Positions 11,701 to 56,809 are shown, counted from the stretch's first letter. The stretch: 64,000 bases of DNA from Candidatus Harrisonbacteria bacterium (GCA_023255625.1 JAHFLF010000001.1:94255-158254); one strand, 5' to 3'. Translations and numbers: made by a program. Notes: generated from the letters alone by a model not told the origin.

Positions 11701-11858
11701 ACGAGCTTGGACGGATGCTCCGTTCTTCTAATAATTTCAAAAAAACGAAACATCCGTCCAATTAAGGACTTCAATGTGATTCAAAGAACTAAATCAGTTA
11801 TACATCTATTACTAGTTACTGTCAAATAACAGTAATATCAAATAGACGCATAACCTTT

Positions 11859-14306: not shown

Positions 14307-14591
14307 TTATTTCTTTTCTTTAACTTTTTTGATTTCGTGATTCGCTCGGGTCTTCTGCTCAATCATCTTCTCCCGGACCAACAGGTTGTGGACGGTATCT
14401 GACGCCTGCGCGCCAACACCGAGCCAATACTTTACGCGCTCGGCATTAAAATGTGCTTTTTTCTCGCGCGGATTGTACCAGCCAAGATCCTCGGTTGAGT
14501 CTCCTTTTAACTTTGAGCGGCGCTCACCAACAACCAAACGAAACGCTGGCTGATGCTTTTTACCAATTCTTTTTAGTCTGATAGACAACAT
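14307..14591 (-). CDS. rpsP: 30S ribosomal protein S16
   Basis: MLSIRLKRIGKKHQPAFRLVV...GWYNP S16 signature. Confidence 0.9.
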   Translation of the reverse strand: MLSIRLKRIGKKHQPAFRLVVGERRSKLKGDSTEDLGWYNPREKKAHFNAERVKYWLGVGAQASDTVHNLLVREKMIEQKTRANHEIKKVKEKK

Positions 14592-18072: not shown

Positions 18073-19803
18073 TCATGCCACCTCTTGCTGGTAACAGGGC
18101 TCACAGTAAACGATCTCGGGCTGTGTTGGCGCGTATGAAGTTTGAATAGGATCCTTGCACTTCTGGCACTCACGATCATAGACCTGGAGCTTGGTGCGCT
18201 GGCTAATGCGGGCAAAGTGGCGGCAGTTTGAGCAAAGCCTCGGGAGCGGCAGATTCATGCTGCGATAAAATGCGAGTTCATCAGGAAGTACGCGGAATGC
18301 AAGCGTACATTGGTCATTGCACGATCCGGCATGCTCGCAGCCAATAATATCTGCAGTAATAGCATCCGGAACGTCCTTAATATTATCCGGTAACTCACTC
18401 GCCGGCTTAGTCACTGTATAGTTGCGCTGTGCCGCATCGCGCCACGTAAAACCACTCGCTTGTGCCTGCTCTTTGGTAAGCGGAAAGTTCTCTTGTGCCA
18501 GCGTCTCGTTGTAGGCAAACGGCGAAAGCTCTGCCGGAAAATACTCGCCATATTTGTAAATCCTCCCCTGTGCATCTAGATATGGCATTGCATCCATCTG
18601 CGCCTTAATCTTTGCAACCAGCGCAACATACTCCTCTTTTGAATACTGCTTGTTTAAAATGCAGTACTCTTTTTTGCGGAGTCCAACGCAGCCAAATAAA
18701 TTTGATGAGGCCTGACACATATACGAATACTCAATGTCATGCACCTGCTCCTGCACGTTGTAGCAAAACTTGATGTTGTTGGTGCCGAGACCGCACGCAG
18801 TGCATTCATAAATCTGCTGGTTACCTGCTCCCCACGCAGTGTAGTCATAACAATCTTTGCTGGCGGGCGTCTCCTGTACATACTGACAGTAACGCAAATT
18901 CTCGCCTTCACGCACTAAAAATGAGTTGCGCACATTGCGAGAGTGGGAAATGTAATTGCCAGAAACATCGGTATTCTGCAGGCCATTAATATACTTATTG
19001 GGGAACTTCAGCCAGAACGCCCTCGCCTGCTCCCGCATAGCCTGCACGGCCGCATACGAACCAAGATTATATTCAGTAATCTTTTTCTCATACTCCTCCT
19101 TCGTATACTGCTCATTCCATATGCAGTAAGACTTTTTACGCAACCCGACGCAACCAAAACAGTTGCTTACGCCGACACAGTCTTTGGAAAATGCAATGTC
19201 GTACGAGCTCTCACATTGCGAAGAAAAAATCGCGTTGCGACACGAAGAAAGCCAAAATCCTTCATAGCATCGCTCAGACTTTTGAAGATGCGAATTATCA
19301 ACGCAATTCTTCACGCCGCCCAGCCCGTTGCCATACATGCAGTCCTCTGCGCCCTGGCCGTTGAAAGTTAAATAACAATTTTTTGGATCAGTAAAATTAT
19401 TCACATAATCACTATTCACGCCATTTACCACATTCAGATTTTTAAGCGGTACGCTGTGGAGCAATTCTTTGAACTGCTCAAAAAATGACTTTGCTTCATC
19501 AAAGTCGCGGCCATAGGTCATCGGGTCCCACAAATCAGAAAGCCAGACATCTTTTTCGTATACCTTCACGGACGAGTCGGGTGCAAAGGCAGAAAAAATA
19601 TCCTTGCCCGAATAATCACTCTTCCGTTTAAATAAAAATCGTTCATTACGAAACGCCATTCTGCGCTGTGCCCGACACAACCAACAAAACGTTGGCGGCG
19701 GCACCGAAACTTTTTTGTAAAATTCCAAATCAGCAGAATCAATAATGAAATCCTGTTTGCAGTTCTGGCAATTTCTAGTTTCCGAGGTTGTCATAGCTAC
19801 CAA
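18073..19803 (-). CDS. Cysteine-rich zinc-ribbon protein, paralog A (576 aa, unknown family)
   Basis: Many cysteines. N-terminal C-x2-C...C-x2-C (CQNCKQ...FCWLCR). Internal duplication FGCVGLRKKSYCIWNEQYTKEEYEKK / FGCVGLRKKEYCILNKQYSKEEYVAL. C-terminal CSNCRH...CQKCKD...YCEPCYQQEVA. Clearly homologous to 22898..24637. Confidence 0.65.
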   Translation of the reverse strand: MVAMTTSETRNCQNCKQDFIIDSADLEFYKKVSVPPPTFCWLCRAQRRMAFRNERFLFKRKSDYSGKDIFSAFAPDSSVKVYEKDVWLSDLWDPMTYGRDFDEAKSFFEQFKELLHSVPLKNLNVVNGVNSDYVNNFTDPKNCYLTFNGQGAEDCMYGNGLGGVKNCVDNSHLQKSERCYEGFWLSSCRNAIFSSQCESSYDIAFSKDCVGVSNCFGCVGLRKKSYCIWNEQYTKEEYEKKITEYNLGSYAAVQAMREQARAFWLKFPNKYINGLQNTDVSGNYISHSRNVRNSFLVREGENLRYCQYVQETPASKDCYDYTAWGAGNQQIYECTACGLGTNNIKFCYNVQEQVHDIEYSYMCQASSNLFGCVGLRKKEYCILNKQYSKEEYVALVAKIKAQMDAMPYLDAQGRIYKYGEYFPAELSPFAYNETLAQENFPLTKEQAQASGFTWRDAAQRNYTVTKPASELPDNIKDVPDAITADIIGCEHAGSCNDQCTLAFRVLPDELAFYRSMNLPLPRLCSNCRHFARISQRTKLQVYDRECQKCKDPIQTSYAPTQPEIVYCEPCYQQEVA

Positions 19804-22897: not shown

Positions 22898-24637
22898 TTA
22901 TGCTACCTCTTGTTGATAACATTCTATGCAATATACTTTTTCGGGCCGGTCGGGGGCGTACGAAGTTTCAAATTGATTTTGGCATTGGGTTTCACCGTGC
23001 TGGTGCGTGGCCGCTCCCGGGCACTGACACGAACGCGGCCAGAGTGTAAGAGGATTGCGTTTCGCAATGCGCTCATAATGGCGGCAGTTTGGGCAGAGCC
23101 GCGGCAATGGCAATGATGCAAGTTTATAGAGAGTCAGGTCTTCCGGCAAAATTCTGAATGCGGTCGTACACTGATGCATGCATCCGTTATGAGCACAACT
23201 TATAATTGCCTTGGTCACCTCATCGCCAGCATCTGCGGCAGAATCCGGCAACTCATCTGGCTGCATCGTAATTTTATAGTTACGCTGCGGTTCATCTCGC
23301 CAGCCATAGCCGGCCACAATAGCATCTTCTTTTGAGAGAGGGAAGAAATCGTGCCCCATTGTTTCGTTGTACACAAATGGCGACAAATCACTTGGAAAAA
23401 ATTCGCCGTACTTGTAGACAAGCCCGCGCTTATCAATATATGGCGTCGTGTCCATTTGCATTTTTATCTTTCCGACCATCGTCTCATACTCCTCTTTGGT
23501 GTATTGCTTGTTCAAAATACAGTACTGACTTTTTTTCATACCAACGCAACCAAACAAATCTTTAGATCCGTGGCAGTTCATGACATATTCGCAATCAATG
23601 ACTTGCTCCCAGCACTCATTGGCAAATTTTAAATTGGCTATTTGTCTACCACAGTTTTGAACTTCATACATACGCTCGGCCGTCGCTCCCCAATGGTTAA
23701 AATCCATTGAATCTTTTGCATCAAAAAGCGAAAGCCCGTACCGAACATTCTGAACATTACGACAGGTGAAAGAACGGGAGACATCCTGACAATGGTCAAT
23801 CCAGTTGCCGCTCACTCGCATCCCTTGGCGCACAACAAGAGCCGGGACAATGAACTGTCTTTTAAATTCATCAAATTTTTTGCGAAGCAGCTCAACGGAA
23901 CGAGCCGAATGTATATTGAGTTCAGCAATTTTTTTCTCATACTCCTCTTTAGTGTACTGTTCGTTCCATATACAGTACTGTTTATTTTTCAAATTTACGC
24001 AGCCGAAAGAATTTTGAACATTCATACAGTTCAGCAAAAACCACGAGTCCGAGCAGTTATTTGATTCTTGCGAAAAGGCAACGCTGTAGCACTGCGAACA
24101 ATCAATGCACTCATAACACCGCTCTGATTTTTGTGTGCCAAAACAATCTAAACACTCTTTTGAGGACATAATCCAGGTACTATACCGAGAGTTTTCCGCG
24201 CCGGTCGTTGCAAACACAAGATAACAATTTTTCATATCTGTTACCCGATTTGTATACTCACTATTGATACTCTGACCCTGCTTGATAATGCCCGGGCGAG
24301 GCACGGCAAGCAGCAATTCTTTGAACTGCTCGAAAAATGGCCGGGTAAAATCGTAATCGCGCGCATATGTTTTTGCATCCCACGACTCTGACCACCAGCA
24401 CGGATAGCAAAAAACAGAATGAGGGCTGTCTGGGCTGTACATCAAAATCTTTTCCTGCTTGCAAAGTCCGCATGGACGCTTAAATAGTGTTCGCTCACTA
24501 CGCCAAATAAATCGCCGGAGCAGCCGGCACTGCGGACAAAATGTCGGCTCGGGTACTTTAAGCATGGTTAAAAACTCCGTGTCCTCCGCGGTAATTTCAA
24601 ACTGCTGCTTGCACTGCTGACAATTTTTTGCTGCCAT
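22898..24637 (-). CDS. Cysteine-rich zinc-ribbon protein, paralog B (579 aa)
   Basis: Same architecture as 18073..19803 (~45 % identity by eye). Internal duplicate FGCVNLKNKQYCIWNEQYTKEEYEKK / FGCVGMKKSQYCILNKQYTKEEYETM. Extra N-terminal CGLCKQ...CYPC ribbon. C-terminal ...YCIECYQQEVA. Confidence 0.65.
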   Translation of the reverse strand: MAAKNCQQCKQQFEITAEDTEFLTMLKVPEPTFCPQCRLLRRFIWRSERTLFKRPCGLCKQEKILMYSPDSPHSVFCYPCWWSESWDAKTYARDYDFTRPFFEQFKELLLAVPRPGIIKQGQSINSEYTNRVTDMKNCYLVFATTGAENSRYSTWIMSSKECLDCFGTQKSERCYECIDCSQCYSVAFSQESNNCSDSWFLLNCMNVQNSFGCVNLKNKQYCIWNEQYTKEEYEKKIAELNIHSARSVELLRKKFDEFKRQFIVPALVVRQGMRVSGNWIDHCQDVSRSFTCRNVQNVRYGLSLFDAKDSMDFNHWGATAERMYEVQNCGRQIANLKFANECWEQVIDCEYVMNCHGSKDLFGCVGMKKSQYCILNKQYTKEEYETMVGKIKMQMDTTPYIDKRGLVYKYGEFFPSDLSPFVYNETMGHDFFPLSKEDAIVAGYGWRDEPQRNYKITMQPDELPDSAADAGDEVTKAIISCAHNGCMHQCTTAFRILPEDLTLYKLASLPLPRLCPNCRHYERIAKRNPLTLWPRSCQCPGAATHQHGETQCQNQFETSYAPDRPEKVYCIECYQQEVA

Positions 24638-24875: not shown

Positions 24876-25349
24876 TCATGGGTCTCTCCTTGTTGCTTGA
24901 GCTACGAGCGGCGCCAAGACCCTCGTCAAGCTCTTGGCGGCTGCGCCACTGCAGTCGATAGGGGCAACCAAACTACTAAGCGCATCAAGCCACTCCGGGT
25001 CTTGAGGGGTAGTAACCAACATGAATAGCTGGCAAAGCACCTTCCCTCTCGAGCCATCGCTCGGTCGCCCATACTCTAACGCCTCAACGGTATCCTGCAA
25101 GGAACCCCAGAACATGTGAATGCAGGAGTTGCTAGCAGGCCACTCGTGGGCACAACCGTCATGGCTCTCAGCGATTGTCCTCTGAGTCTTGCCATCGTTG
25201 AACTCAAGGCGGGCCCGGCCGTTGCCGTCTTTCAAAAATCCGACAACGAAGTACGGGAAACCGTCACCCATGGGCCCGGTTCGGATCTTCCGCGTCGCCA
25301 CAACCTCCCATCCGTCGAACGCCCGAATGCTCTTATCGATCTTGCTCAT
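24876..25349 (-). CDS. hypothetical protein, high-GC (157 aa from MSKIDKS)
   Basis: GC-rich island 24840-25350. Preceded by leader copy c. Confidence 0.4.
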   Translation of the reverse strand: MSKIDKSIRAFDGWEVVATRKIRTGPMGDGFPYFVVGFLKDGNGRARLEFNDGKTQRTIAESHDGCAHEWPASNSCIHMFWGSLQDTVEALEYGRPSDGSRGKVLCQLFMLVTTPQDPEWLDALSSLVAPIDCSGAAAKSLTRVLAPLVAQATRRDP

Positions 25350-25374
25350 TGTCCACCTCTTTAGTTTTGGAGAA

Positions 25375-25505
25375 AAAACAAAAAGAGCCCTCAACGCGAG
25401 TGCTCAAATACAGATCCTAAAGCGCGATTTTCGACTATCCTCGCCGTAAGACCTACATTCAATGACAAAATAAGATTAGCATATCATAGCCAATCTGTCA
25501 ATCTC
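25375..25505 (-). promoter_or_regulatory. Conserved 5' leader element, copy c
   Basis: 22 nt (agcgcgattttcgactatcctc) identical to copy b. Minus RNA ends GAGCACUC GCGUU GAGGGCUC UUUUUGUUUUUU, a terminator-like hairpin plus U-run just upstream of the ORF. Confidence 0.55.
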
Positions 25506-33689: not shown

Positions 33690-34001
33690 CTAGAAAAGAA
33701 TCTCCTCGACTTGGAAGATCTGGAAGCGCCTTGTGGTGGCGTAGTCCCCCTCTAGCATCAGGAGGCCGTCACCAATCTGCGGATTAAAGTCTCCGCAGTG
33801 AAGAGGTTGCCCCTGCTCAAGGATTCCGAGAGAGGGCTTCAATCGCTGACACACATCGAAGGTATTGTCTTGCACTGCGTGAAGCTCGTGCTCGTGCAGA
33901 CTACCTCGAATGTGCGCCCTCCCAATTGAACCAACCCTGAGGAGCAAATCCCCAAAGAGCGGGCGCAGCTTAGGAGTTACTGCTATGATCCAAAGTCTCA
34001 T
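33690..34001 (-). CDS. hypothetical protein, high-GC (103 aa)
   Basis: AGGAGG tgcc ATG start (MRLWIIAVTPKL). Part of a three-gene GC-rich island. Confidence 0.4.
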   Translation of the reverse strand: MRLWIIAVTPKLRPLFGDLLLRVGSIGRAHIRGSLHEHELHAVQDNTFDVCQRLKPSLGILEQGQPLHCGDFNPQIGDGLLMLEGDYATTRRFQIFQVEEILF

Positions 34002-34329
34002 GGCACCTCCTGGTTTCGTGGAAGAACATCTCCTCGTGTCTGGTATCTAGTTCGACGACCACCAGAACACTGGAGCAAGTGGTTCGTTCCGCGCGTCTTC
34101 CTTCGCGCGATACCATGGGCAGCTTCTCTTTAGACTGCAGCCGAGCGATCACTCGCCAAGCCGCCGCATCTTGTCGTTCGTAGAGCACGACCGCCCTCGT
34201 CCCGACAAGCTGCTTGAGCTCGGCCACCGTGACTGCACCACAGAAACCGACGCCGCACGAGTGTCCTGGTGCAACTCGTCCGCTATCTCCTCGTTGAGTG
34301 ACAAGCCAAAACAACGCCGCCTCTTCCAT
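33970..34329 (-). CDS. hypothetical protein, high-GC (119 aa)
   Basis: GGAGGAG ttc ATG start. Overlaps the downstream gene by 32 nt. Confidence 0.4.
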   Translation of the reverse strand: MEEAALFWLVTQRGDSGRVAPGHSCGVGFCGAVTVAELKQLVGTRAVVLYERQDAAAWRVIARLQSKEKLPMVSREGRRAERTTCSSVLVVVELDTRHEEMFFHETRRCHETLDHSSNS

Positions 34330-34342
34330 GAACTCCTCCCTC

Positions 34343-34727
34343 CTACTTTGTCTTCATGAGACTCTGTGCGAGAAGAGGGGGTGGCCCATCGCCGTACACC
34401 GCCCAGTCCAGCGGAAAGACCTTGCCTGCTCCCTCTGGACTCACCGTGAAGATGACGAGAAGACCGGGTTCTGCCTTGCCGACGATCTGCGCCGCAACTA
34501 CCGCACTGGACCCGCGTGGAACATCCAGCGGATACCCCTTGAACTGCGATATCGAGCCCGTGACGAGCCCGCTATACGGCTGGCTGATCGTCACCTCGCC
34601 CTTCTTGGCCGGCTTTGGCTTCTGCTCATCCAACTGCTTGCGCAGACGAACATTCTCCTCATTGAGAAAGAGCGCTGCGAGAAACGCTCCGACAGCGAAC
34701 ACTCCGACGACCACCATTAGATCGCCT
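34343..34727 (-). CDS. hypothetical membrane-anchored protein, high-GC (~128 aa)
   Basis: AAGGAGG then GTG start (VKDITGDLMVVVGVFAVGAFLAALF...). N-terminal TM then coiled segment. Confidence 0.4.
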
Positions 34728-34919
34728 GTAATGTCTTTCACGATTGCCTCCTTACCGAAACGACAATGCGCCGTTTGGAAAATCAGAATATAATATTTTT
34801 TATATTTAGTCAATTTTCCCAGTTGCACTACGGCTAATTTTTTGCTAAAATATATCTATCGTTTTTAAATTTCTCTTACGCATTAACCGACTAACTGTCG
34901 ACCGACTAACCGACTAACT

Positions 34920-38539: not shown

Positions 38540-39853
38540 ATGAAACTATCCCGCACTCAAACCATCATCGTGGCCATTGTCGGAGTTATCATCCTGGCCG
38601 GTATTCTTATTTTCCTGGGCATTATTCCGGGTCTGCGCCAGGAGGTAGCAAATCAAAACGATAAATTGACCGGCGACTTAGTCGTCTGGGGAGTTTTTGA
38701 TAGCGAAACTGCGGTTAGTAAAACTCTGATCGCCGACTTTAAAGCCCGACACCCGAATGTCAATATCAGCTACCGCTCGCTCGATGCCCGCACTTATGAA
38801 GATGACTTAATCAATGCCCTAGCCGCCGGCAGCGGCCCTGATGTTTTCATGGTCAAAAACACCTGGCTGCCCAAGCATTACAACAAACTTGATCCGCGCG
38901 ACCCGAAAGAATTTACCGTGGTTAATTTCGCGGATTTATACCCGCAGGTTGCGACTAAAGACTTTGTACGCGAAGGCAAAGTGTACGCAATGCCACTATA
39001 TATAGACACGCTCGCCACAATCTACAACAAAGCATTGTTCGACGCCGCCGGCATTGCGCAGCCGCCGCGCAGCTGGGAGGAGTTCGCGCAGATTATCCCG
39101 GAGCTTCGCAAGCTAGATGAAAGTGGCCGAATAACCCAGGCCGCCGCGGCAATCGGCGGTAGTAATAAAAATATTAATGAGGCAAATGATCTGCTTTTTC
39201 AGATGATGCTTCAGTACGGAGTAGAAATGACTAATGACGGTCTCTCCTCCGCTACATTCGCAAACGGTGGCCAGGGTCCTTTGGACTTCTACCTTTCCTT
39301 CGCTAATTCCAGAAGCACAAACTATACCTGGGATCGCGGCTTCCACTACTCTATTGATGGCTTTGCCGAAGAGTCGGTCGCAATGATTTTTAACTACGGC
39401 TATCAGCTCGAGCAACTCAAAGAAAAAAATCCGTTTTTACAAATCGGCGTCGCCCCGATGCTCCAGCCAAAAAATATTGACCGGCCGATAACCTACGCCA
39501 GCTACTTCGGACTGGGCGTCTCGGCCACCAGTCAAAACAAAACCGTCGGTTGGACATTTGTAGATGAATCAACCGCCGGCGATGGCGCGACGAATGCTAA
39601 ATATCTAAACGAAGCACACCGCTCACCGGCCCTGCGCTCTTTGATCGCCGCCTCGACCAACGACTCTCAAGTCGGCGTCTTTGCCAAGCAGGCACTCATG
39701 GCCACCTCCTGGCCACAAGTTGATAGCACTGCTATTAATGTCGCCTTTGCCGGCATGCTGGAATCAATTGTTACCGGCCAACTGACCTCGCAGCGCGGGC
39801 TGCAACAAGCCGAAGATCAGGTTACCCAGATTATGCAAAGATCAGAAAATTAG
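38540..39853 (+). CDS. Membrane-anchored extracellular solute-binding protein (family 1-like)
   Basis: Start at MKLSRTQTIIVAIVGVIILAGILIF (TM anchor), then a periplasmic binding fold. The track ORF N-extension from 38381 runs through the repeat element and is not real. Confidence 0.55.
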   Translation: MKLSRTQTIIVAIVGVIILAGILIFLGIIPGLRQEVANQNDKLTGDLVVWGVFDSETAVSKTLIADFKARHPNVNISYRSLDARTYEDDLINALAAGSGPDVFMVKNTWLPKHYNKLDPRDPKEFTVVNFADLYPQVATKDFVREGKVYAMPLYIDTLATIYNKALFDAAGIAQPPRSWEEFAQIIPELRKLDESGRITQAAAAIGGSNKNINEANDLLFQMMLQYGVEMTNDGLSSATFANGGQGPLDFYLSFANSRSTNYTWDRGFHYSIDGFAEESVAMIFNYGYQLEQLKEKNPFLQIGVAPMLQPKNIDRPITYASYFGLGVSATSQNKTVGWTFVDESTAGDGATNAKYLNEAHRSPALRSLIAASTNDSQVGVFAKQALMATSWPQVDSTAINVAFAGMLESIVTGQLTSQRGLQQAEDQVTQIMQRSEN

Positions 39854-39863: not shown

Positions 39864-40343
39864 ATGAAAAAAAATCGCGCTATTCTACTGGCCTCGACCC
39901 TCTTAGCCCTAATATTAATCTCTGGTAGCCAAATAGCACTGGCAGTCGGAGACGCCAGTCAGAAACCACTGCCGGGCGCAGATGTTCAAGCCAGCGACCT
40001 CGGTAACGGCATTATTCCGGATTGCGAGCCGAGTAACACCAATATCGGCCCAGGCGAACCCGGTTGCGGCCTGGACGACGCAATTCAGGTAATTTATAAC
40101 ATCATTAGCTACATCAGCTACATTATTATCCCCATCGCCGTCTTGTTGCTCGGTTATGCCGGATTTACTATAATGACTTCAGCGGGTAACAGCGAAAAAG
40201 TTACTCAAGCATGGAAGATGATCCGGGTAACCGCGATTGGTCTGGCGATTATATTTCTTTCGACGCTGATTGTCAGATACATTTTTAAAGCCCTGGATGT
40301 AAATACCCAAAAATTTGGCCCGACCAATATAGAAATCAAATAG
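39864..40343 (+). CDS. TrbC/VirB2-like small pilin-family membrane protein, paralog 1 (159 aa)
   Basis: Signal peptide (…IALA) then variable Cys-containing region, then two hydrophobic helices separated by a small polar loop. Confidence 0.5.
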   Translation: MKKNRAILLASTLLALILISGSQIALAVGDASQKPLPGADVQASDLGNGIIPDCEPSNTNIGPGEPGCGLDDAIQVIYNIISYISYIIIPIAVLLLGYAGFTIMTSAGNSEKVTQAWKMIRVTAIGLAIIFLSTLIVRYIFKALDVNTQKFGPTNIEIK

Positions 40344-40355
40344 AAATACAATAAC

Positions 40356-40700
40356 ATGCGCCGATTTTCATTATTTTTTTTCACTCTGCTTCTGCCCGTC
40401 TTTGCATATGCTATTACCGACCCCAAAAAAGATGGCATTCCCCTGCCCGACCCGCTCAATGTAAATAGCTTGCCGGAATTATTTGACAAGATCTTCCGCT
40501 TTGCTGCTATTCAAGTTGGCCCTTTCATCGTAATTATCTTCGTGCTGGTCGGCGGCTATCAAATGATTTTCTCCGGCGGTGAGGCGGAAAAATTCTCAAA
40601 AGGAAAAAATACGATTGTTTACACAGTTATCGGCTACGCCCTGCTCTTAATGTCTTACGGCATTGTAGACATAATCAAATCAGCATTAACCGTAAAATAA
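40356..40700 (+). CDS. TrbC/VirB2-like small pilin-family membrane protein, paralog 2 (114 aa)
   Basis: Signal peptide (...FAYA) then ...VGGYQMIFSGGEAEKFSKGKNTIVYTVIGYALLLM.... Confidence 0.5.
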   Translation: MRRFSLFFFTLLLPVFAYAITDPKKDGIPLPDPLNVNSLPELFDKIFRFAAIQVGPFIVIIFVLVGGYQMIFSGGEAEKFSKGKNTIVYTVIGYALLLMSYGIVDIIKSALTVK

Positions 40701-40706
40701 ATTGCT

Positions 40707-41066
40707 ATGAGCAAAGCGTTTCGGTCTCTCGGCGTAAAAATTTTCTTCTGTAGCGTCATCCTTTCGCCCGTTTTCGCCCCAGTTTTTACCCTTGCCGAAG
40801 ATGACCCGCTGAAGGGTCTGCCAAAAGATGCCGCAGGCGTTATGCAGGTTTTAGGAAATATCACCAATTGGCTATTCACTGGTATTCTGATAATTTCTGT
40901 GATAATGATTATAGTAGCCGCATATAAGTATCTGTTTAGCGGCGGCAGCGAAGAGGCAACCTCTGCGGCTCGCAAGACGATTGTCTACGCCGTGATTGCT
41001 CTGGCGGTCGCGATGCTGGCCAAAGGCGTGGCTCCACTTGTAAAAACACTATTATCAGTAAAATAA
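40707..41066 (+). CDS. TrbC/VirB2-like small pilin-family membrane protein, paralog 3 (119 aa)
   Basis: ...ITNWLFTGILIISVIMIIVAAYKYLFSGGSEEATSAARKTIVYAVIALAVAMLAKG.... Confidence 0.5.
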   Translation: MSKAFRSLGVKIFFCSVILSPVFAPVFTLAEDDPLKGLPKDAAGVMQVLGNITNWLFTGILIISVIMIIVAAYKYLFSGGSEEATSAARKTIVYAVIALAVAMLAKGVAPLVKTLLSVK

Positions 41067-41072
41067 CAGTAT

Positions 41073-41453
41073 ATGAAAAAAATCATATTTATTCTGCCGC
41101 TCGCTGTAATGTTTTTAGCATTAATCGTACCAATGACTCCTGCCCTTGCGATTGATTGTCCTGGCGGAGGCAGTACTGCCGGCGGTCAGCCCTGCCAATT
41201 ACCAACCAACGCAAATCTTCAGCCAAATGTTTTGCTGGCAACGATAGAGGAAATTACTGACTGGATGTTTACCGGACTCTTGGTACTTGCGGTTGTTATG
41301 TTGATTATCGCCGCCTATCACTATCTTTTCTCCGGAGGCAGCGAGGAGGGAACGCAAAAAGGCAAGAACTATATCATCTACACAGTTATTGCAATTGCAG
41401 TTGCAATGTTAGCCAAAGGAATTACCTTCATCGTCTACCAGATTCTGAAATAG
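41073..41453 (+). CDS. TrbC/VirB2-like small pilin-family membrane protein, paralog 4 (126 aa)
   Basis: ...ITDWMFTGLLVLAVVMLIIAAYHYLFSGGSEEGTQKGKNYIIYTVIAIAVAMLAKG...; N-region has CPGGG...GQPC. Confidence 0.5.
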   Translation: MKKIIFILPLAVMFLALIVPMTPALAIDCPGGGSTAGGQPCQLPTNANLQPNVLLATIEEITDWMFTGLLVLAVVMLIIAAYHYLFSGGSEEGTQKGKNYIIYTVIAIAVAMLAKGITFIVYQILK

Positions 41454-41561
41454 AAAAATTGACTTTAAAATCGAACGGGCCCGACTGGCAACATACTCCC
41501 TTGCGGGAGACGCCAATCGGGCCTCGTTTTGTGCTGCGCGTGGTAGTGGAGCTCTACCGCG

Positions 41562-42044
41562 CTACTTCTTCTTCTCGAGCGCCCTGGCCTCGAACTGCTG
41601 GTCAGGGAGTCCGGCTTCGACATAGAAGACCGGATAGCGAGCCGTCTCGAAGACGGAGTTCTCGCCCAGGATGGCTCCACCATCCTCGAGCATGATGCGG
41701 AACTTCCGCTTGCACACTCGTTTGCCGATCTCCTGCACATCCTCGATCGTGTACGAGAGACCGGCCGCTACCTCTACACGAGCCCACTGCCCGGGTTGCA
41801 GCGGGAAAGCCGCAACGGCTCCCGGGAACGCCAGCGTGTACTCCCCTCCGTCGAGATTCGGAGGTACGCTCTTCACAGCGCTGGGCCGCCAGGAGACCAG
41901 CACTGCAATTCCGGCTCCAAGAAGGAGTAGGGTGATCGCGGCGGCCAGCCCCATGAAAAGCTTCGTCCGCCCGAAACTGGCCACGCTCACGCAATCCTCC
42001 ACATCATCGGGTGCATCTGCGGAGTTGGCAGGATTGCTACTCAT
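41562..42044 (-). CDS. small membrane protein, possible NfeD-like partner of the SPFH protein (160 aa), high-GC
   Basis: N-terminal TM. 4-nt overlap with the upstream SPFH gene (translational coupling). Function is inferred from the pairing only. Confidence 0.35.
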   Translation of the reverse strand: MSSNPANSADAPDDVEDCVSVASFGRTKLFMGLAAAITLLLLGAGIAVLVSWRPSAVKSVPPNLDGGEYTLAFPGAVAAFPLQPGQWARVEVAAGLSYTIEDVQEIGKRVCKRKFRIMLEDGGAILGENSVFETARYPVFYVEAGLPDQQFEARALEKKK

Positions 42045-43294
42045 GTTGTCGAACCTCCAGTCGGCACAGACAGACCGCCGGCCGTCAGACCGGCGGCAAG
42101 CCGCGCCGCCGCCGAGACCGATCCATCGTCAGCTACGACAACTTTCAGATCTGCCACCTTGATGCCTGCCTGCGCAAGCGCGCCGGCATAGGCAAGATTC
42201 GCCGTGACACCAAGCTTGACAGCACTCTCCGTCATCGCCGTGACACCAGGAGCCGTCTGCTCCGCAGCTTTGGCATCCTGTTGCGACTTCAACACCTTCT
42301 GCGCATACTCGATGCTCTTAGGGTCATACACCACCCCGATGAGCTCGCAGTTGTCGAAGGTGCATCCGATGTGCAGCTCGTGGTGTGACAGAGCGGTTTC
42401 AGAAATCCCGCCCTGATTGAACAGCACATTCATCTGATCCAGCGCTGCACGTACTGCAACTGCGTGCTTGCCGTACCAGACAAGCACATTGCCAGGCAGA
42501 ATCTCAACGAGTGACTGTCCGGCGGCAACACCCTCAACTCTTCGCCGGAATGCCGCGTCCTTGTGCAACGGAATGTGCAGTGACAACTCCGACTCGACGA
42601 ACAGCGCAAGCGCATGCCTGTTCTCGTCAAGATCCTTGCGGCTCATCTTCGCAAGCATCGACGTCAGGAGCCCCTTGATGGGACCCCTGATACCGACCTC
42701 CACGTGATGCGCGGCAAAGTTCCTCTGCCTCCTCTTCGCACCCTCGATCACCCAGTTGCCGTAGACGTTCAACCCATCCGAGTCAGCGATACGCGGGTCC
42801 GGGCAGACGGTCACCTGGAAGGTGACTTTGACAACTTCATGAGTCGTGAGCTGCTGTTCCACCTCGATCGTTATCGGCAACGGATTTGTCTCGATCTGAG
42901 CCATCCTGTTACCGATCCCGACCTTGTGCAGGCCAGGCCCGTGTGTCGCAGAGCGGATCTTGCCGCCACTGCTCTGAACCGCATACGATCGTCCACCGAC
43001 TGAACGGACGAACATAGCGAGCCAGAACCAGAGAACGCCAAGATAGGCGGCACCCAGACCCACGATGACCATGCCGAAAATGGCGCAGCTCATCCAGATG
43101 AATCCGCACAAGATCGAGACCAGAGCAATCGCGTAGGCGATACCCAAGCCCTGGAAATGCGGAGTCAACTCTCTCTTGAGGAAAGGCTCAATCTCCTCCC
43201 CCTCAAGAACCGTGCAGGTCACGAAAGCGTGCCCCGCCGGTGCAACTGTTGTCCCGGGCGATACTACCGCCGGGGGCGCAACATGACTAGTCAT
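42041..43294 (-). CDS. SPFH/Band-7 (flotillin/stomatin-like) membrane protein, high-GC
   Basis: GGGAGG 5 nt before ATG (MTSHVAPP...). TM helices, then ...VKVTFQVTVCPDPRIADSDGLNVYGNWVIEG...IRGPIKGLLTSMLAKMSRKDLDENRHALALFVESEL... SPFH-domain pattern, Ala-rich C-terminus. Confidence 0.6.
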   Translation of the reverse strand: MTSHVAPPAVVSPGTTVAPAGHAFVTCTVLEGEEIEPFLKRELTPHFQGLGIAYAIALVSILCGFIWMSCAIFGMVIVGLGAAYLGVLWFWLAMFVRSVGGRSYAVQSSGGKIRSATHGPGLHKVGIGNRMAQIETNPLPITIEVEQQLTTHEVVKVTFQVTVCPDPRIADSDGLNVYGNWVIEGAKRRQRNFAAHHVEVGIRGPIKGLLTSMLAKMSRKDLDENRHALALFVESELSLHIPLHKDAAFRRRVEGVAAGQSLVEILPGNVLVWYGKHAVAVRAALDQMNVLFNQGGISETALSHHELHIGCTFDNCELIGVVYDPKSIEYAQKVLKSQQDAKAAEQTAPGVTAMTESAVKLGVTANLAYAGALAQAGIKVADLKVVVADDGSVSAAARLAAGLTAGGLSVPTGGSTT

Positions 43295-43422
43295 CGCTAC
43301 CTCCCAGCCCGTAGAACGGGCCGTCGTTAGAAACCAACGGCCCAAACCGGGCCAGCCACGCCGTACGCCAGCGTTGGCCCTATTCGACTGTCCCATGCAG
43401 GCCCCACACGAGGCCAACATTG

Positions 43423-43480
43423 CACGAACAGGATTTTTGCGGACCAGATAAAATGCCCCGCAAAAATCCTGTTCGTGCCC
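43423..43480. repeat. 21-bp perfect palindrome
   Basis: gcacgaacaggatttttgcgg accagataaaatgcc ccgcaaaaatcctgttcgtgc. Confidence 0.6.
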
Positions 43481-43745
43481 TTGAACGCTCTTTAGTTTTC
43501 AAAGTACATTCGGAAAATTCCTGTTTTAGACAGAACTCCCCACCAACAGCATATTTAGCATATTTTCATACCATTTGTCAATCTTTTCCATCGCCAGTTC
43601 AACAAACCGGGTTAGCATTTAACCAATGCGAAGTCCGTACCATAGGGAGCAGTAAAAGGTATCCCTGCTCATCTTGGCGGGAACTCTGGGTTTGCGGGTC
43701 TTTATATTTATCCAACAGCTCAACTATACACAGCCCCGCTATACC

Positions 43746-43760
43746 TGTGGTATACTAAAT
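43746..43760 (+). promoter_or_regulatory. promoter-like tgtggtatactaaat (extended -10 TGnTATACT) upstream of pilin paralog 5
   Basis: Identical 15-mer at 53543 upstream of another small gene. ~40 nt before the ATG at 43800. Confidence 0.35.
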
Positions 43761-43799
43761 TAAAGACATTTATTAATGCTTTAATATTAAAATTATTCT

Positions 43800-44144
43800 A
43801 TGAAGAAAGTTGTTACATTCATCTCATTATTAGTCGTTAGCTTTATGCCAATGGCGGCTCTAGCCATCGACATTCCGGCCACTACCCCTCCGCCGGGCAT
43901 CCGCAGCTTTGAAGGAATCCTTGGTGTCATGAACACAATCATCGACTGGCTCTTTACCGCACTCATGGTGTTCGCCGTGATCATGATTATCTACGCCGCA
44001 TTCAGCTATCTAACCGCCGGTGGTGATGAGGAGAAGATCAGCAAGGCCCACAAGACAATTGTTTACGCAGTTGTCGCGATTGCCGTCGCCTTCCTTTCCC
44101 GCGGCATCTCCTTCGTTGTTCAGCAGCTGCTCGGACAGGGATAG
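43800..44144 (+). CDS. TrbC/VirB2-like small pilin-family membrane protein, paralog 5 (114 aa)
   Basis: ...IIDWLFTALMVFAVIMIIYAAFSYLTAGGDEEKISKAHKTIVYAVVAIAVAFLSRG.... Confidence 0.5.
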   Translation: MKKVVTFISLLVVSFMPMAALAIDIPATTPPPGIRSFEGILGVMNTIIDWLFTALMVFAVIMIIYAAFSYLTAGGDEEKISKAHKTIVYAVVAIAVAFLSRGISFVVQQLLGQG

Positions 44145-44241: not shown

Positions 44242-44326
44242 GCTCTCGTGGCGGAACTGGCATACGCGCGTGGCTTAGGACCACGTCCCGCAAGGGTTAG
44301 AGGTTCAAATCCTCTCGAGAGCACCA
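44242..44326 (+). tRNA. tRNA-Leu (anticodon TAG), CCA encoded
   Basis: GCTCTCG TG GCG GAACTGGCATA CGC G CGTGG CTTAGGA CCACG + long variable arm CCCGCAAGGGTT + AGAGG TTCAAAT CCTCT CGAGAGC A CCA. Confidence 0.85.
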
Positions 44327-44352: not shown

Positions 44353-44402
44353 AATTCCCAATACCATAAATCTACCATGGTAGATTTATGGTATTGGGAA
44401 TT
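44353..44402. promoter_or_regulatory. 50-bp perfect palindrome centred on CCATGG (site 1)
   Basis: aattcccaataccataaatctaccatggtagatttatggtattgggaatt. Shares core ataccata..tctaccatggtaga..tatggtat with 45056-45087. Confidence 0.55.
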
Positions 44403-44430: not shown

Positions 44431-45045
44431 CTAAATCTTAACCTGGAGATTCTTGCCTGGAAATCGCAGTGTGCCAGATTTCGTTATTTCAAAAATATCA
44501 ACATACTGAGTTAAATTGGCTTCGGCGAGATCATCAATAAAACTCTCCGGTATCTGTCGTTTACCGATAAAAAGACTTCGCTGCAAAAATCGAAAACCAA
44601 ACTGACCAAGAGCACCCCTCAACCAATCGCGCTGTTGCCGCATCGTATGTGGAATATCATACGCAATAATAGTGACGCGATCGCTGGGCGTAGCAACATA
44701 TTTTTTTGCGCGTACGATATCAGAAAGATCATTTTCATGCTCATGGACCCAAGTTTTCCCTGCCTGCGTCATACTATAATGAGCTTCACGACCAATTCTG
44801 GTACTCTTAATAAGTCCGTCTTGCTTTAATGCTTGAATCAACCGTTGCGCGCGTTTCCATTCAAGTCGTTTTTGATGCTCATCAAAATGCTTCTTGTCAT
44901 ACTGCTGGCGAACCTGTTGCGCCGCCGCAAAACCCGCCCGAATCCCCCTCTGACGACCAAAGCCGCCACCAATCAAAAAGGATGCTATCTCTGCACTGGT
45001 ACGACCGACATCTGACAAAAAATATAAAATCTGTTTTCTCTTCAT
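44431..45045 (-). CDS. winged-HTH + Cas2-like (VapD/PaaX-C-like) domain protein, putative regulator (204 aa)
   Basis: C-terminal ...VTIIAYDIPHTMRQQRDWLRGALGQFGFRFLQRSLFIGK... resembles the Cas2/PaaX_C ferredoxin-like fold pattern (YD....RR..LR..L...G.R.Q.S.F). Assignment is tentative. Confidence 0.4.
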   Translation of the reverse strand: MKRKQILYFLSDVGRTSAEIASFLIGGGFGRQRGIRAGFAAAQQVRQQYDKKHFDEHQKRLEWKRAQRLIQALKQDGLIKSTRIGREAHYSMTQAGKTWVHEHENDLSDIVRAKKYVATPSDRVTIIAYDIPHTMRQQRDWLRGALGQFGFRFLQRSLFIGKRQIPESFIDDLAEANLTQYVDIFEITKSGTLRFPGKNLQVKI

Positions 45046-45055
45046 GCGTACATAA

Positions 45056-45087
45056 TACCATATTTCTACCATGGTAGAAATATGGTA
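45056..45087. promoter_or_regulatory. 32-bp perfect palindrome centred on CCATGG (site 2), ~11 nt upstream of the start of the 44431..45045 gene
   Basis: taccatatttctaccatggtagaaatatggta. The aa..tt versus tt..aa swaps relative to site 1 preserve dyad symmetry. Confidence 0.55.
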
Positions 45088-50204: not shown

Positions 50205-50460
50205 ATAACATGGGGATAGGGATTAGAGGTTGCTAGATGCTGCTAGAGGTTGATAGGTAAACTTAGAGGAAACTAGCTTGGCGCGGCCCGAGTACGGGCC
50301 GCGGCGGTTTCGTTCTAACCCGAACCCCTTGCTAGCATCCTCTAGCAGCATCTAGCACCCTCTAGCAGCCTCTAGCAGCCTCTAGCAGCCTCTAGCAGCC
50401 TCTAGCAGCCTCTAGCAGCCTCTAGCAGCATCTAGCAGCATCTAGCCCCGTTGACTTTAT
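50205..50460. repeat. Tandem array: ~13 direct copies of 10-bp unit CTCTAGCAGC (50338-50455), mirrored by 3-4 inverted copies (50212-50245) across a GC hairpin (50281-50306)
   Basis: ...ctctagcagcatctagcaccctctagcagcctctagcagcctctagcagc...; upstream gctagatgctgctagaggttg; centre gcggcccgagtacgggccgc. In the divergent region between gpmI and the 50525 gene. Confidence 0.8.
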
Positions 50461-50524: not shown

Positions 50525-51163
50525 GTGCTGGGATTCATCTGGGTCGTACTCATCGTTATCTGTTTCGCGGCGGCCATTTATCTCGGCGAATGCACCAGGT
50601 ATGACAGGAAACATGGCGTAGGTGACGGGATCATCAACGAGAGACTGTCCTTCTTCTTTGGGATCCTCTGTTTCCTGATGTGCTTCGCACCACTTCTGTT
50701 CGAGTTCGTGCCCTTCTCGGGAAAGGGCAGCTATGTCGTCGCGGTCAGAAACGACGGCAGCTACACCAAGTACCCGTACGGCTGCTGGGAGTGGACGGAT
50801 GGAGAGCTCTACACAGTGTGGAGTCCTCTACCTGAATCCAGAGAGATCCTGCTAAATCCGGACGATCCGGGCACCAAGCTCCCATACTCCGTCACTCTGA
50901 AGATATCGGATCCGGGCATCTACTTCAACCAGAAGGAAATGGATTGGAAGAAGAAGCAAGCGCTTTTCCACTTCTTCCTGGTCCAGCTCGAGCAGCCGGG
51001 TTGGGAACATGACTTCCGGGAGTTCACCGATCCGGCCAACCAGGAGCAGCAGCGCCGCTTCGTGGAACTCGTCCTGCCCTGGCTCAACCAGCGTCTGGCC
51101 AAGTACGGCCTGGGCGCTACGGACGCCTCGTTCGCGGCTCGAACAACGCCGCCAAAGGACTAG
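50525..51163 (+). CDS. hypothetical membrane protein, high-GC (212 aa)
   Basis: GGAAAGGAG then GTG start. Two TM helices. GC3-biased codons. Confidence 0.5.
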   Translation: MLGFIWVVLIVICFAAAIYLGECTRYDRKHGVGDGIINERLSFFFGILCFLMCFAPLLFEFVPFSGKGSYVVAVRNDGSYTKYPYGCWEWTDGELYTVWSPLPESREILLNPDDPGTKLPYSVTLKISDPGIYFNQKEMDWKKKQALFHFFLVQLEQPGWEHDFREFTDPANQEQQRRFVELVLPWLNQRLAKYGLGATDASFAARTTPPKD

Positions 51164-54414: not shown

Positions 54415-54897
54415 CTAGGGCAAAGTCATCAATGCTTTCCCCAGAATCGCGAGCTTCACGCACTCCGGCAGGACGAAGACATTGTGGTTCTGGCCGATCG
54501 CGTCGACAGTCCCCAGAGTGGCTCTGCGCCAACGCGGGTCCCACTCCTTCAGACCGCGCTTCTTCCGACACAGCTCGGCGGCCCTCCTGGTTCGGAAGAG
54601 CGCCACGATGTCGGTAGTGCGCCCCCGAAGCATGGAACTGTTCATCTGCCAGAACTGACGACCGTACTTCGTCTGCGGGTAGAAGAGAACCAGACCGCCG
54701 ATCTGTCCACCTCCGCCGATCCCGACCATCGAACCACCCACAAATTGGTGGCCGACCTTCATACTGGCCTTGGCCCTTCCGGCAACCTTCTTCACGGTTG
54801 GGTCGCCAAATTCATTGATGGCGTCGGACATCAGGTAGACCGACCCGGAGCATGTCACTGCGAACAGACGCTTTAGCTGCTGCTTTGGGCTCTTCAT
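54415..54897 (-). CDS. hypothetical protein, high-GC (160 aa)
   Basis: GC-rich island with GC3-biased codons. No motif. Confidence 0.4.
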   Translation of the reverse strand: MKSPKQQLKRLFAVTCSGSVYLMSDAINEFGDPTVKKVAGRAKASMKVGHQFVGGSMVGIGGGGQIGGLVLFYPQTKYGRQFWQMNSSMLRGRTTDIVALFRTRRAAELCRKKRGLKEWDPRWRRATLGTVDAIGQNHNVFVLPECVKLAILGKALMTLP

Positions 54898-55007
54898 GGA
54901 GCACCTCCTATAACTACTTATTTACATCAAAAAAATAATCTTGTCAATTTCTGACACTAACGACCAAAGCAAGAATTCTCTTTATATATATTTTTGCTAT
55001 ACTGAAT

Positions 55008-56809
55008 GTATGCGCCACCTCCCTCGTCTACTCCCTAGAACCTACTCCCTACCCGGCCTCGACTCGACTCGGCGAGGCGGGAAACCTTCCCAAGAAGGTT
55101 TCACCCTAATCGAAATGATGGTCACAGTCGGCATTCTTGCGCTACTGGCCGGGATTGTTATTAACGGCGTTAACCCGACGCGCCAAATTGGTACCACCCG
55201 CAACGCACAGCGGCTAAGCGACATCTCCGCTATCTCCGGAGCGGCCAATCATTATGCAATCGAAAAATTTACCGATTACCCGGCCGGAATTGATACGACG
55301 CTAAGAATGCTAGGAACGGCTGCATCGGGATGTACCGTTAGCTGTGGCCCGGACACAATCCCTCCCCCGCCACAGAGCATTACCTCATTCGCAGACAACA
55401 CCCAGCCGGAATTTGACGCCGGCACACATTCCAACACCCAGTGGAATATCAGCACATCTGCAATCGGTCTCACCGGCACAGGCCTGATCAATAAAACCGG
55501 CACTTACCTTTCCAAAATTTTTGACGGCGGCTCGTCAGTAACCTGGAACGCGCTTTCCTGGCTGCCACGCGCGCCCTACGGTAAAGAGCTCCCCTCGCCC
55601 TTTAGCGCGATTGAAACCGGCTACCCGACCGGTAGCGCCACAATGACCGGCAATGTTTTACTGATGCATACCAACGAAACGAGTGGCACGATCGCCGATG
55701 TCTCCGGCAACAGTAATAATGGCGCGAATATGGGTGGCATAACATATGGCGTCGCCGGCAAATTTAATAAGGCGCTTTCGTTTAACGGCACTAGCGGCTA
55801 CGCGCAGGTCAACACCGCGGCTAACCTGAACTTGCCCAACACCAGCGGCACAGTCATGCTCTGGATAAATCCGACCATCACGGCCGGCAGTATTCCGCAA
55901 AATACCGGCATGGGCATCATCCGCAAACCGGATTTTAACGGCAACCTTTTCGCGATGGGCGGGTACAGCATGGAAGTGTATCGTAATCTCGTCACGGGCC
56001 CGGCAAATATAAGAATGTACCTGGGCTGGAACAACGGAGTTACGACCTCCAATCAGTCAATCACCGGCGCAACGAATATTTTAAATAATACCTGGTATCA
56101 TGTAGCTATGACTTGGAACGCGGGGACAATGAATATTTATGTAAATGGGGTTTTAGACGGCACCGCGCCGCGCACCACCGGGCCGCTGAACTGGGCGGGT
56201 GGCACCGAAAAACTTTACATCGGCCACCGAGCCGCATCTCAATCCACTGGTTATGGCTGGTTTAATGGTTCGCTGGACGAGATAGCGCTGTTCAACCGGC
56301 AACTGACTGCGCCGGAAATCACCGCTGCTTATCAACGCGGCGCTTACGATCCAAAACTGCGCGTCCGCAGCTGCAACGATGCAGCATGTGTTGGCGAAAC
56401 CTTTGTTGGGCCAGATGGGACTGCCGGCACTTACTTCAGCGAAGAGACAAACACCGCGCTAACGCCGGCGACGCTCACGCCAAATGTCCCAGCCAACCGT
56501 TATCTACAATATCAACTAATCTTAGACACTGATACCCAAAGTGGCGGGCCGGAAATCGCCAGTGTTGGTGGCGGCAACAACGGCACTGGCGGGGGCAGCG
56601 GTACAGGAACCGCGACGACTGAAAATACTCTCGACAGCTGTCTAAATCTGACATCAGTTCTGGCCCCAAACTATCTGACCTCTATCCCCTTCGACCCGGC
56701 GACCGGAAACGCAGCCAAGACAAATTATGCCGTCAAAAAAATCCCAGGCGGGCTGCTAGTCCGCAGCTGTACGCCAGCGCTTAATAAGTCAATACAATTA
56801 ATTCAATAA
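55008..56809 (+). CDS. Type IV pilin-like protein with C-terminal LamG (concanavalin-A-like) domain
   Basis: Prepilin motif ...KPSQEG|FTLIEMMVTVGILALLAGI with E5. LamG pattern ...TWYHVAMTWNAGTMNIYVNGVLDG...LYIGHRAA...FNGSLDEIALFNRQLTAPEI. The 30-aa leader is unusually long, so the start is uncertain. Confidence 0.7.

Follow-up and report, generated by a model that had tools for sequence, protein, structure and literature searches.

The 64,000-nucleotide stretch of DNA analyzed here (JAHFLF010000001.1, 94255 to 158254, of assembly GCA_023255625.1; referred to below as the window) contains five genes for small VirB2-like pilins, the fourth and fifth of which are separated by a GC-rich pair of overlapping genes on the opposite strand. 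We conclude that the locus is probably a chromosomal pilin cluster of an uncultured saccharibacterium (TM7; Patescibacteria, or candidate phyla radiation, CPR) in which the pair, encoding a very divergent SPFH protein and a small membrane protein, is a resident and fast-evolving component. The module comprises, in order, a membrane-anchored solute-binding protein (SBP), four tandem pilins of family PF18895, a convergent, coupled operon for the SPFH protein and its small single-pass partner, and a separately promoted fifth pilin. A sequence-only reading of the same DNA had described the pair as an island interrupting the array; the gene order of related genomes largely refutes a foreign island.

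Position, divergence and base composition of the GC-rich pair

The window was compared with related contigs or loci, labeled L001, L003, L007, and so on. The order DnaE-ThrS-GyrA-SBP-four pilins-(large, small)-pilin 5-Xer-RmuC is identical in L003 (a Saccharibacteria metagenome-assembled genome), L007, and L009, with GyrA proteins 83 to 91% identical and housekeeping DNA ~70 to 75% identical to that of the window. The pair in each of the three consists of overlapping opposite-strand genes, a large one of 409 to 610 aa and a small one of 138 to 182 aa. GC-rich pairs convergent to pilin arrays were also observed in L013 and in L020 to L023, and in L092, a 2.8-kb contig without a pilin, a GC-rich large gene lies directly 3' of Xer. 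With L003, L007, L009, L013, L020 to L023, and L092 counted together, the slot is filled by a GC-rich pair in no fewer than six related lineages besides that of the window. In the more distantly related loci L036, L058, L086, L062, and L035, among others, a Band_7-positive protein with an overlapping small open reading frame (ORF) is again convergent to the pilin array, there with no GC excess. All family matches in the compared loci lie downstream of the pilins on the opposite strand. The occurrence of the pair in the same slot in relatives therefore makes it a resident component of an SBP-pilin-SPFH-pilin module. Conserved synteny in relatives, which the sequence-only reading had itself set against the horizontal origin it proposed, is what we found.

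The junctions of the locus are identical in three separate assemblies (ERZ27280176, ERZ27297344, and SRR14366772) and the locus is also on record on a 601,890-bp NCBI contig; it is therefore not an assembly chimera, and this explanation was rejected. In L019, two tandem SPFH-plus-small pairs stand behind the pilin array (7134 to 11068, with large genes at 10001 to 11068 and 7559 to 8470, each followed by an overlapping small ORF), which indicates duplication of the pair in some lineages.

Divergence was measured as pairwise identity among the four syntenic genomes (the window, L003, L007, and L009). Identity was 83 to 91% for GyrA, 73 to 96% for Xer, 65 to 73% for pilin 5, and 46 to 68% for pilins 1 to 4, the orthologues of pilin 1 having 46 to 57%. 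The values for the pair were ~28% for the large protein and 26 to 30% for the small partner, where similarity was detectable at all; no other part of the locus diverges nearly as fast as the pair. L007 and L009, for example, have Xer proteins that are 96% identical and GyrA proteins that are 91% identical, whereas their large proteins have no detectable similarity and their small proteins match only with an E value of 0.17. The pattern of sharing with the window is mosaic, L003 having only the small protein in common with it and L020 only the large one. Between the ~98.5% identical strains L020 and L023, 21 of 42 single-nucleotide polymorphisms (SNPs) fall in the SPFH gene (p = 6e-5); these comprise 10 synonymous and 9 nonsynonymous codon changes, and the excess is therefore not only at the protein level. 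The SBP is itself unusually divergent (62 to 66% identity) for relatives with such similar GyrA proteins.

Such differences could arise by replacement instead of divergence in place. It is possible, although we consider it doubtful, that the slot is a conserved hot spot at which lineages of Saccharibacteria repeatedly exchange large-plus-small cassettes drawn from a GC-rich pool, the pair being a diversifying, strain-specific surface or host-range determinant. The loss of detectable similarity between the large proteins of the closely related L007 and L009, the mosaic sharing, and the concentration of SNPs in the SPFH gene all point toward swapping, as does the fact that the contigs of two strains ~97% identical to L007 stop at the cassette edge. 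However, the pair has neither recombination sites nor mobility genes at its borders, and a pool circulating in a clade of 48 to 53% GC would still have to remain at 60 to 67% GC, leaving the composition unexplained. Moreover, L007 and L009 also differ unusually strongly in their SBP and pilins (46 to 65% identity), so that generally fast evolution of surface proteins may suffice, and the L013 large protein, which appeared undetectable, is still recognized as a family member by hhalign (94% probability).

Contig ends from independent samples recur in the same region, those of L006 and L008 lying just after pilin 4, that of L004 inside the large gene, and those of L092 and L093 inside the small gene. 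Recurrent ends of this kind are compatible with strain heterogeneity or with GC-dependent loss of coverage.

The ~2-kb segment of about 62% GC that the sequence-only reading had placed on the opposite strand within the array was confirmed as GC rich, but it is not a foreign interruption. GC content between pilins 4 and 5 peaks at 0.63 and averages ~0.60, compared with 0.48 for the window, and that of the pair is 0.59 to 0.62, compared with 0.49 for host genes. Both minus-strand ORFs have the codon-position pattern GC1 > GC2 < GC3 (GC content at first, second, and third positions) and are therefore coding in those frames. GC3 in the pair is 0.69 to 0.73, whereas 0.54 to 0.55 would be expected for the same amino acids with host codon usage and host genes have 0.53; G-ending codons make up 0.87 of its two-fold purine codons, compared with 0.50 in host genes. 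The codon usage is thus atypical, as had been claimed, but it is common to relatives, and its foreign origin is not supported. Across the four genomes, GC3 of the pair is 0.69 to 0.82 against 0.54 to 0.66 expected with host codon usage, and the G-ending fraction is 0.80 to 0.89 in the pair against 0.50 to 0.56 in host genes in four of four; in L003, L007, and L009, the pair has a GC content of 0.61 to 0.67 and a GC3 of 0.72 to 0.82 over a background of 0.51 to 0.53.

About half of the GC excess comes from a composition rich in Ala, Val, and Gly and poor in Lys and Ile, and about half comes from G/C-ending synonymous codons. An origin of the excess wholly in amino acid composition was therefore only partly true, the synonymous bias remaining. 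As for high expression as an explanation of the codon bias, the gene for HU has a GC3 of only 0.61, and the other GC3-rich ORFs are orphans with no Pfam match. The bias must be maintained rather than be the residue of an import, because a one-off import should have ameliorated at this divergence. That the bias is common to relatives, and that the pair diverges fastest, suggests a local and persistent process; a recombination hot spot with GC-biased conversion and repeated exchange of cassettes within the clade are the candidates. GC-biased gene conversion is known to occur in bacteria (PMC4450053).

Other ORFs of the window have an elevated GC3 as well (0.60 to 0.76, compared with a window mean of 0.52), none of them with a Pfam match: 50525 to 51163 (+), 54415 to 54897 (-), 11394 to 11774 (-), 24876 to 25394 (-), and 33690 to 34828 (-). 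The first of these, of 212 aa, is missing between the iPGM and RNase Y genes in L007 and L009. Orphan or lineage-specific genes of this genome thus tend to be GC rich, the reverse of the usual pattern.

Assignment of the pilins and of the SPFH pair

All five pilin-like ORFs lie on the plus strand with exactly the boundaries of the sequence-only reading, and its description of paralogs with one architecture held. The proteins align over the block W(L/M)FT..hydrophobic..AAY.YLFSGG.EE..K..I(V/I)Y.VIA.AVA.L, pilins 2 to 5 being 25 to 30% identical to paralog 1. A hydropathy scan showed in each an N-terminal signal-like hydrophobic segment followed by two more hydrophobic helices, and AxA-type motifs occur after the first segment; the signal peptides are predicted from these two features. 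Pilins 1 and 4 carry a single Cys pair each, in agreement with the earlier description.

The Pfam model PF18895 (T4SS_pilin, for type IV secretion system [T4SS] pilins) was passed by all five proteins at 32.8 to 40.2 bits, above a gathering cut-off of 26.6, and precomputed Pfam annotation agrees. None of the five reached the gathering score of the TrbC/VirB2 model PF04956 (27.9 bits); four scored 16.4 to 24.6 bits, and pilin 5 had no match at an E value of ≤0.1. The likeness to T4SS or conjugative pilins proposed earlier therefore stands for PF18895 and stays below the cut-off for TrbC/VirB2. Among NCBIfam models, the pilins matched Mbov_0395 (pilin-like conjugal transfer protein), at subthreshold level only. 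A profile search of 5.8 billion proteins with the pilins returned ~100 matches, almost all belonging to PF18895. These homologues are Patescibacteria or Saccharibacteria proteins; where the source supplies a name, it is mostly "hypothetical protein," and the few named "pilin" come from Saccharibacteria, Paceibacterota, Parcubacteria, or the Patescibacteria group. These results support the assignment of the five proteins, by sequence family, to the VirB2-like pilins.

Arrays of this kind have been described. Passages of a survey of Patescibacteria (PMC12102498) report 441 tandem VirB2-like pilin arrays of 2 to 11 genes in 383 assemblies, especially of Saccharimonadia, note that arrays are sometimes separated by non-pilin genes, and propose that array paralogs are an adaptation to different host strains. 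The window array has the same Pfam family (PF18895/PF04956 in that survey), phylum, and class (Saccharibacteria) as those arrays and, like them as far as those passages describe them, consists of tandem paralogs of low identity with a Sec signal peptide and a two-helix hairpin, both predicted here. It differs from what the same passages describe in lying outside a recognizable T4SS cluster, between gyrA/SBP and xer, and in that its intervening genes are a conserved SPFH-plus-small operon. The pilin array adds one more case to a kind already published, and there is nothing new in the array itself; the modest novelty lies in the conserved, hypervariable, GC-rich SPFH operon inside it, which was not found in the literature searched, nor was any paper there linking Saccharibacteria with SPFH proteins.

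Gram-negative TrbC/VirB2 pilins (VirB2 of Agrobacterium and TrbC of RP4; PF04956) have the same small size, signal peptide, two helices, and short charged loop as the window proteins, whose similarity to that family is weak and consistent (16 to 25 bits) but below its gathering score. The host here is, by contrast, a monoderm-type CPR bacterium, with a T4SS that passages of PMC12102498 relate to the Gram-positive MPF-FATA class. The multicopy VirB2 genes of Bartonella and Anaplasma, cited in the same paper, are likewise tandem diverged paralogs, thought to serve surface variation or a broader host range; those genes, however, belong to diderm intracellular pathogens whose adjacent virB operons are complete, and the passage that treats them describes no SPFH partner.

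The large protein of the pair is, by fold and by transitive homology, a soundly identified but very divergent SPFH protein. An AlphaFold2 model built on the 8 proteins found with HMMER has a predicted local distance difference test score (pLDDT) of 73 overall and ~90 in the core, with strands at residues 96 to 165, helices, and a long helix at 325 to 360; hydropathy places a hydrophobic segment at 47 to 96. Foldseek matched this model in the PDB to prohibitin, HflK/C, erlin, stomatin, QmcA-YbbJ, and flotillin, with E values down to 7.6e-9, and all 33 matches at an E value of ≤1e-3 were SPFH or vault proteins. The family profile gave a weak match to prohibitin-2. A hidden Markov model (HMM) iterated over the compared loci links the protein to ORFs in ~10 further lineages, all 3' of pilin arrays, and five of these homologues (L036, L058, L067, L035, and L069) pass the Band_7 gathering score with 34 to 48 bits. 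We regard the SPFH identification made by the sequence-only reading as sound because the fold matches and the HMM links to Band_7-passing homologues both lead to it.

The protein has few close relatives. A full HMMER search found 8 among 1.84 billion representative proteins, those whose contexts were open to inspection being at the same Saccharibacteria-type locus; a word-indexed search of 5.8 billion proteins returned only the query itself, and a scan of genome contigs gave one true relative and one weak archaeal match. In comparison with solved SPFH proteins (QmcA-YbbJ, 8z5g; HflK/C-FtsH, 7vhq and 7wi3; prohibitin, 8rrh; and flotillins), the modeled protein has the same N-terminal anchor, SPFH alpha/beta domain, and long C-terminal helix, but it is only 10 to 15% identical to them, falls below the Band_7 cut-off, and has conserved motifs of its own, PDPRI and LSHHE.H.GC. 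The large proteins of L003, L009, and L013 matched no PDB sequence.

The two genes are translationally coupled, as had been proposed: the TGA of the large gene overlaps the ATG of the small gene (ATGA), the small gene has its own GGAGG, and hydropathy predicts one transmembrane helix in its product. Coupled overlaps of 1 to 31 nt, mostly of 4 nt, occur in almost all related loci, and nearly every SPFH ORF reached with the iterated HMM overlaps a following ORF of 134 to 210 aa. The order of an SPFH gene followed by an overlapping gene for a small membrane protein is that of QmcA-YbbJ, titled "SPFH-NfeD family protein complex QmcA-YbbJ" in the PDB. Unlike the partners in SPFH-NfeD operons, however, the window protein has one transmembrane helix and no NfeD signal, and the pair is conserved beside a pilin array. 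The NfeD model PF01957 matched none of the 11 partners tested, neither the window protein (E ≤ 0.1) nor any of 10 small partners from related loci (E ≤ 1), so that NfeD membership is not supported and the label "NfeD-like" given earlier falls back on operon position. The small partner is homologous to those of L003 (E value, 6.6e-9) and L007 (6e-6); it had no Pfam, PHROG, or PADLOC match, a word-indexed search found three proteins only, and its AlphaFold2 model, from a three-sequence alignment, is too poor to judge the fold (mean pLDDT, 35.6).

Spurious or noncoding ORFs in GC-rich DNA were rejected on the codon-position GC pattern, the Shine-Dalgarno sequences at both genes, the homologues, and the confident fold. 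A structured RNA in the segment was also rejected, an Rfam scan at an E value of ≤1 having given only the neighboring tRNA-Leu and chance miRNA-like hairpins.

Proposed function and alternatives

Saccharibacteria are obligate epibionts, and only few of their genes have a demonstrated essential role in growth on the host, those for the T4SS-like system and its pilins among them. In Saccharibacteria, the known relatives of the window pilins are part of an essential T4SS-like apparatus of Gram-positive type that is used at the host interface; Southlakia epibionticum cannot grow epibiotically without the pilins of its T4SS cluster (PMC10633639). We infer that the window proteins form pili and cooperate with the SPFH pair. 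The five pilins would be Sec-exported two-helix hairpin subunits that feed a patescibacterial T4SS-like apparatus encoded elsewhere. Pilin 5 may be the major subunit and pilins 1 to 4 variants with different exposed N-regions, the diverged N-regions plausibly giving alternative or minor subunits. By analogy with characterized family members, the SPFH pair most likely builds an oligomeric cage or microdomain in the membrane, there to organize or quality-control membrane proteins, with the pilin pool or its assembly site as candidate client. A scaffold role toward the pilin pool can be offered as inference only; the scaffolding of the Staphylococcus aureus type VII secretion system by flotillin is a precedent (PMC5718613).

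Alternatively, the PF18895 proteins may not be pilus subunits, an explanation we consider unlikely. They would then be small Sec-dependent two-helix membrane or secreted proteins that act without a T4SS, for example as envelope or host-contact factors, and the SPFH pair would be a neighboring membrane housekeeping operon. The absence of any T4SS component among the ORFs scanned in the 64-kb window is in keeping with this, as are the TrbC/VirB2 scores below the cut-off, the still putative function of the PF18895 family, and statements in passages of the literature that Gram-positive-type T4SSs are generally without pili (PMC12102498 and PMC10633639) and that 813 of 1,948 assemblies have no VirB2-like gene near virB4 (PMC12102498). 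Yet a curated T4SS_pilin model is passed by five of five proteins, which also have the VirB2 topology and subthreshold matches to Mbov_0395, and homologous pilins lie inside the T4SS cluster of S. epibionticum and are essential with it (PMC10633639).

Returning to a pilin cluster with a resident SPFH pair, a more elaborate form of this proposal is speculative and, taken as a whole, improbable. In it, the SPFH protein and its small partner would be a membrane cage dedicated to storing, chaperoning, or gating the VirB2-like pilin pool of an environmental clade of Saccharibacteria. The pair would be kept GC rich by unusually frequent recombination and, as the most rapidly diversifying element of the host-contact module, would contribute to the host specificity of the epibiont.

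That the pair is a recently acquired foreign island splitting a five-gene pilin array is, on the evidence of synteny, very unlikely. What it has in common with an island is a composition unlike that of the host (in GC content, GC3, and G-ending purine codons), its placement on the opposite strand, and the nearby tRNA-Leu and tyrosine recombinase genes. The recombinase gene, however, is of the XerC/D type and conserved throughout the relatives, a repeat search found no direct-repeat family flanking the pair, and there are no island-borne mobility genes. The pair is not absent from relatives, whose housekeeping DNA is only ~70 to 75% identical, and its closest homologues are not foreign: the window, L003, and L007 have small proteins homologous to one another, and no high-GC donor taxon can be named, the search of 1.84 billion representatives having found no homologue beyond the 8 already described. 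An integron or IMEX-type cassette was rejected on the same grounds of missing flanking repeats and the conserved XerC/D-type recombinase.

The idea that the pair is a conflict system (anti-phage defense or toxin/immunity) in a variable region beside surface genes fits a two-gene, rapidly diversifying, compositionally odd cassette with a lineage-specific, palindrome-flanked PaaX/Cas2-like gene in the neighborhood, but it is the least credible of all, as none of 8 cassette proteins matched PADLOC, 4 tested against PHROGs gave nothing significant (best E value, 0.12), the fold is that of SPFH scaffold proteins, and the position behind pilin arrays is conserved. A defense system or phage origin of the pair was rejected on these PADLOC and PHROG results.

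Several observations weigh against a pilin cluster served by a resident SPFH pair. No T4SS family matched among the ~30 window ORFs scanned, which included all of at least 400 aa, and several ORFs have no Pfam match; the earlier statement that the window holds no T4SS ATPase agrees with this for the ORFs scanned. In the cultured S. epibionticum, the essential array SEML1_0014 to SEML1_0019 (PMC10633639) is followed by Hsp20 and not by an SPFH gene, a canonical slipin being encoded elsewhere. The window large protein itself misses the Pfam Band_7 (PF01145) cut-off, with 19.0 bits (E value, 0.0015) against 23.6, and the large proteins of L003 and L009 were not shown to be SPFH proteins (hhalign probabilities of 1% and 14%, and no Pfam or PDB match). 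The link between SPFH proteins and pilins rests on gene neighborhood in one clade, whose loci are not phylogenetically independent. As for composition, GC-biased gene conversion is a candidate cause, and since the other GC3-rich ORFs of the window are orphans too, the bias may characterize lineage-specific genes in general and not this locus in particular.

A conserved but fast-evolving SPFH operon within pilin arrays is a concrete candidate for an accessory factor in pilin handling. A pair conserved in position and hypervariable in sequence, lying 10 to 15 GC points above the genome across lineages, is an odd compositional pattern, and it warns that GC content alone is no basis for calling islands "foreign."

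Flanking elements and other genes of the window

The features of the locus are collected in Table 1. The start chosen for the SBP gene, which gives 437 aa, follows the gene call in L001. The gene ends 10 nt 5' of pilin 1, and the SBP and pilins 1 to 4 are therefore probably cotranscribed. A homologous SBP stands at the head of the pilin array in L003, L007, L009, L019, and L022, also ~10 nt 5' of pilin 1, and neither in the window nor in the relatives does a permease or ATPase gene adjoin it. For the large gene of the pair, ATG 43294 is probably the start and was preferred because GGGAGG lies 6 nt upstream.

Table 1. Features of the pilin and SPFH locus, with coordinates in the window
Feature	Position	Strand	Description
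SBP_bac_1 family-1 solute-binding protein	38540-39853	+	Orphan; N-terminal membrane anchor; PF01547, 94.9 bits
Pilin paralog 1	39864-40343	+	159 aa; PF18895, 40.2 bits; long variable N-region with Cys54/Cys68 pair
Pilin paralog 2	40356-40700	+	114 aa; PF18895, 36.3 bits; alignment and topology
Pilin paralog 3	40707-41066	+	119 aa; PF18895, 32.8 bits; alignment and topology
Pilin paralog 4	41073-41453	+	126 aa; PF18895, 34.3 bits; Cys29/Cys41 pair directly after predicted signal peptide cleavage site
GC-rich hairpin, candidate terminator	41538-41562	+	Terminator-like scan, consensus match only; lies in the 108 nt that separate the convergent pilin 4 and small genes
Small partner	41562-42044	-	160 aa; Gly/Ser-rich N-tail, one predicted transmembrane helix, ~100-aa C-terminal domain
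Divergent SPFH/Band-7 membrane protein	42041-43294	-	417 aa from ATG 43294; frame open to 43420 (459 aa)
Perfect 21-bp inverted repeat, 15-nt loop	43422-43478		Upstream of SPFH operon; candidate operator or 5' hairpin
Promoter-like site of pilin 5	43727-43756	+	TACACA, 18-nt spacer, TATACT, extended -10 TG; found by scan
Pilin paralog 5	43800-44144	+	114 aa; PF18895, 36.2 bits; most conserved of the five paralogs; predicted to be separately transcribed

The sequence-only reading had given pilin 5 a promoter of its own, and a promoter-like element is indeed predicted there. The motif tgtggtatactaaat lies ahead of pilin 5 at 43747 to 43761, and the TGnTATACT element of the promoter-like site is invariant in five lineages (the window, L003, L007, L009, and L012), while the flanks are not conserved. 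The inverted repeat that precedes the SPFH operon occurs nowhere else in the window; L003 has a similar sequence (CACGAAACAGGGATTTTGGG...) in the equivalent place (14307 to 14366), and none like it was found in L007 or L009.

A tRNA-Leu gene (anticodon TAG) lies at 44242 to 44326, 98 nt 3' of pilin 5, with a 50-bp perfect palindrome next to it. The region does not look like an island boundary, because similarity to L007 and L009 DNA runs past pilin 5 into or up to it. The minus-strand gene at 44431 to 45072, whose 213-aa product has a PaaX central Cas2-like domain, is flanked by two palindromes related to each other, the 50-bp one at 44353 to 44402 (perfect, 25/25) and another at 45054 to 45087 (88% similar). 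The gene is absent at the same position in L003, L007, and L009 and therefore looks like a lineage-specific insertion between tRNA-Leu and xer.

The other genes of the window are ordinary chromosomal ones, for a murein ligase, a penicillin-binding protein (PBP), MraW, SMC, DnaE, ThrRS, GyrA, RmuC, iPGM, RNase Y, HU, and a PIF1 helicase. Two large ORFs with no Pfam match at an E value of ≤0.001, at 18073 to 19803 (-; 576 aa) and 22898 to 24637 (-; 579 aa), flank genes for an ABC ATPase and an SBP_bac_3 protein. A 622-aa protein encoded at 54941 to 56809 (+) carries a type IV pilin methylation motif (N_methyl) at its N terminus together with a Laminin_G_3/ConA-like lectin domain and is probably a large minor pilin or adhesin of a type IV pilus, a system other than the VirB2-like array. 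A tandem repeat of the 10-bp unit CTAGCAGCCT in 11.5 copies (50332 to 50446) stands between the iPGM gene and a GC3-rich orphan ORF. The window has 4 copies (40 bp) more than the otherwise identical contig L001, and the repeat number therefore varies between assemblies or strains.

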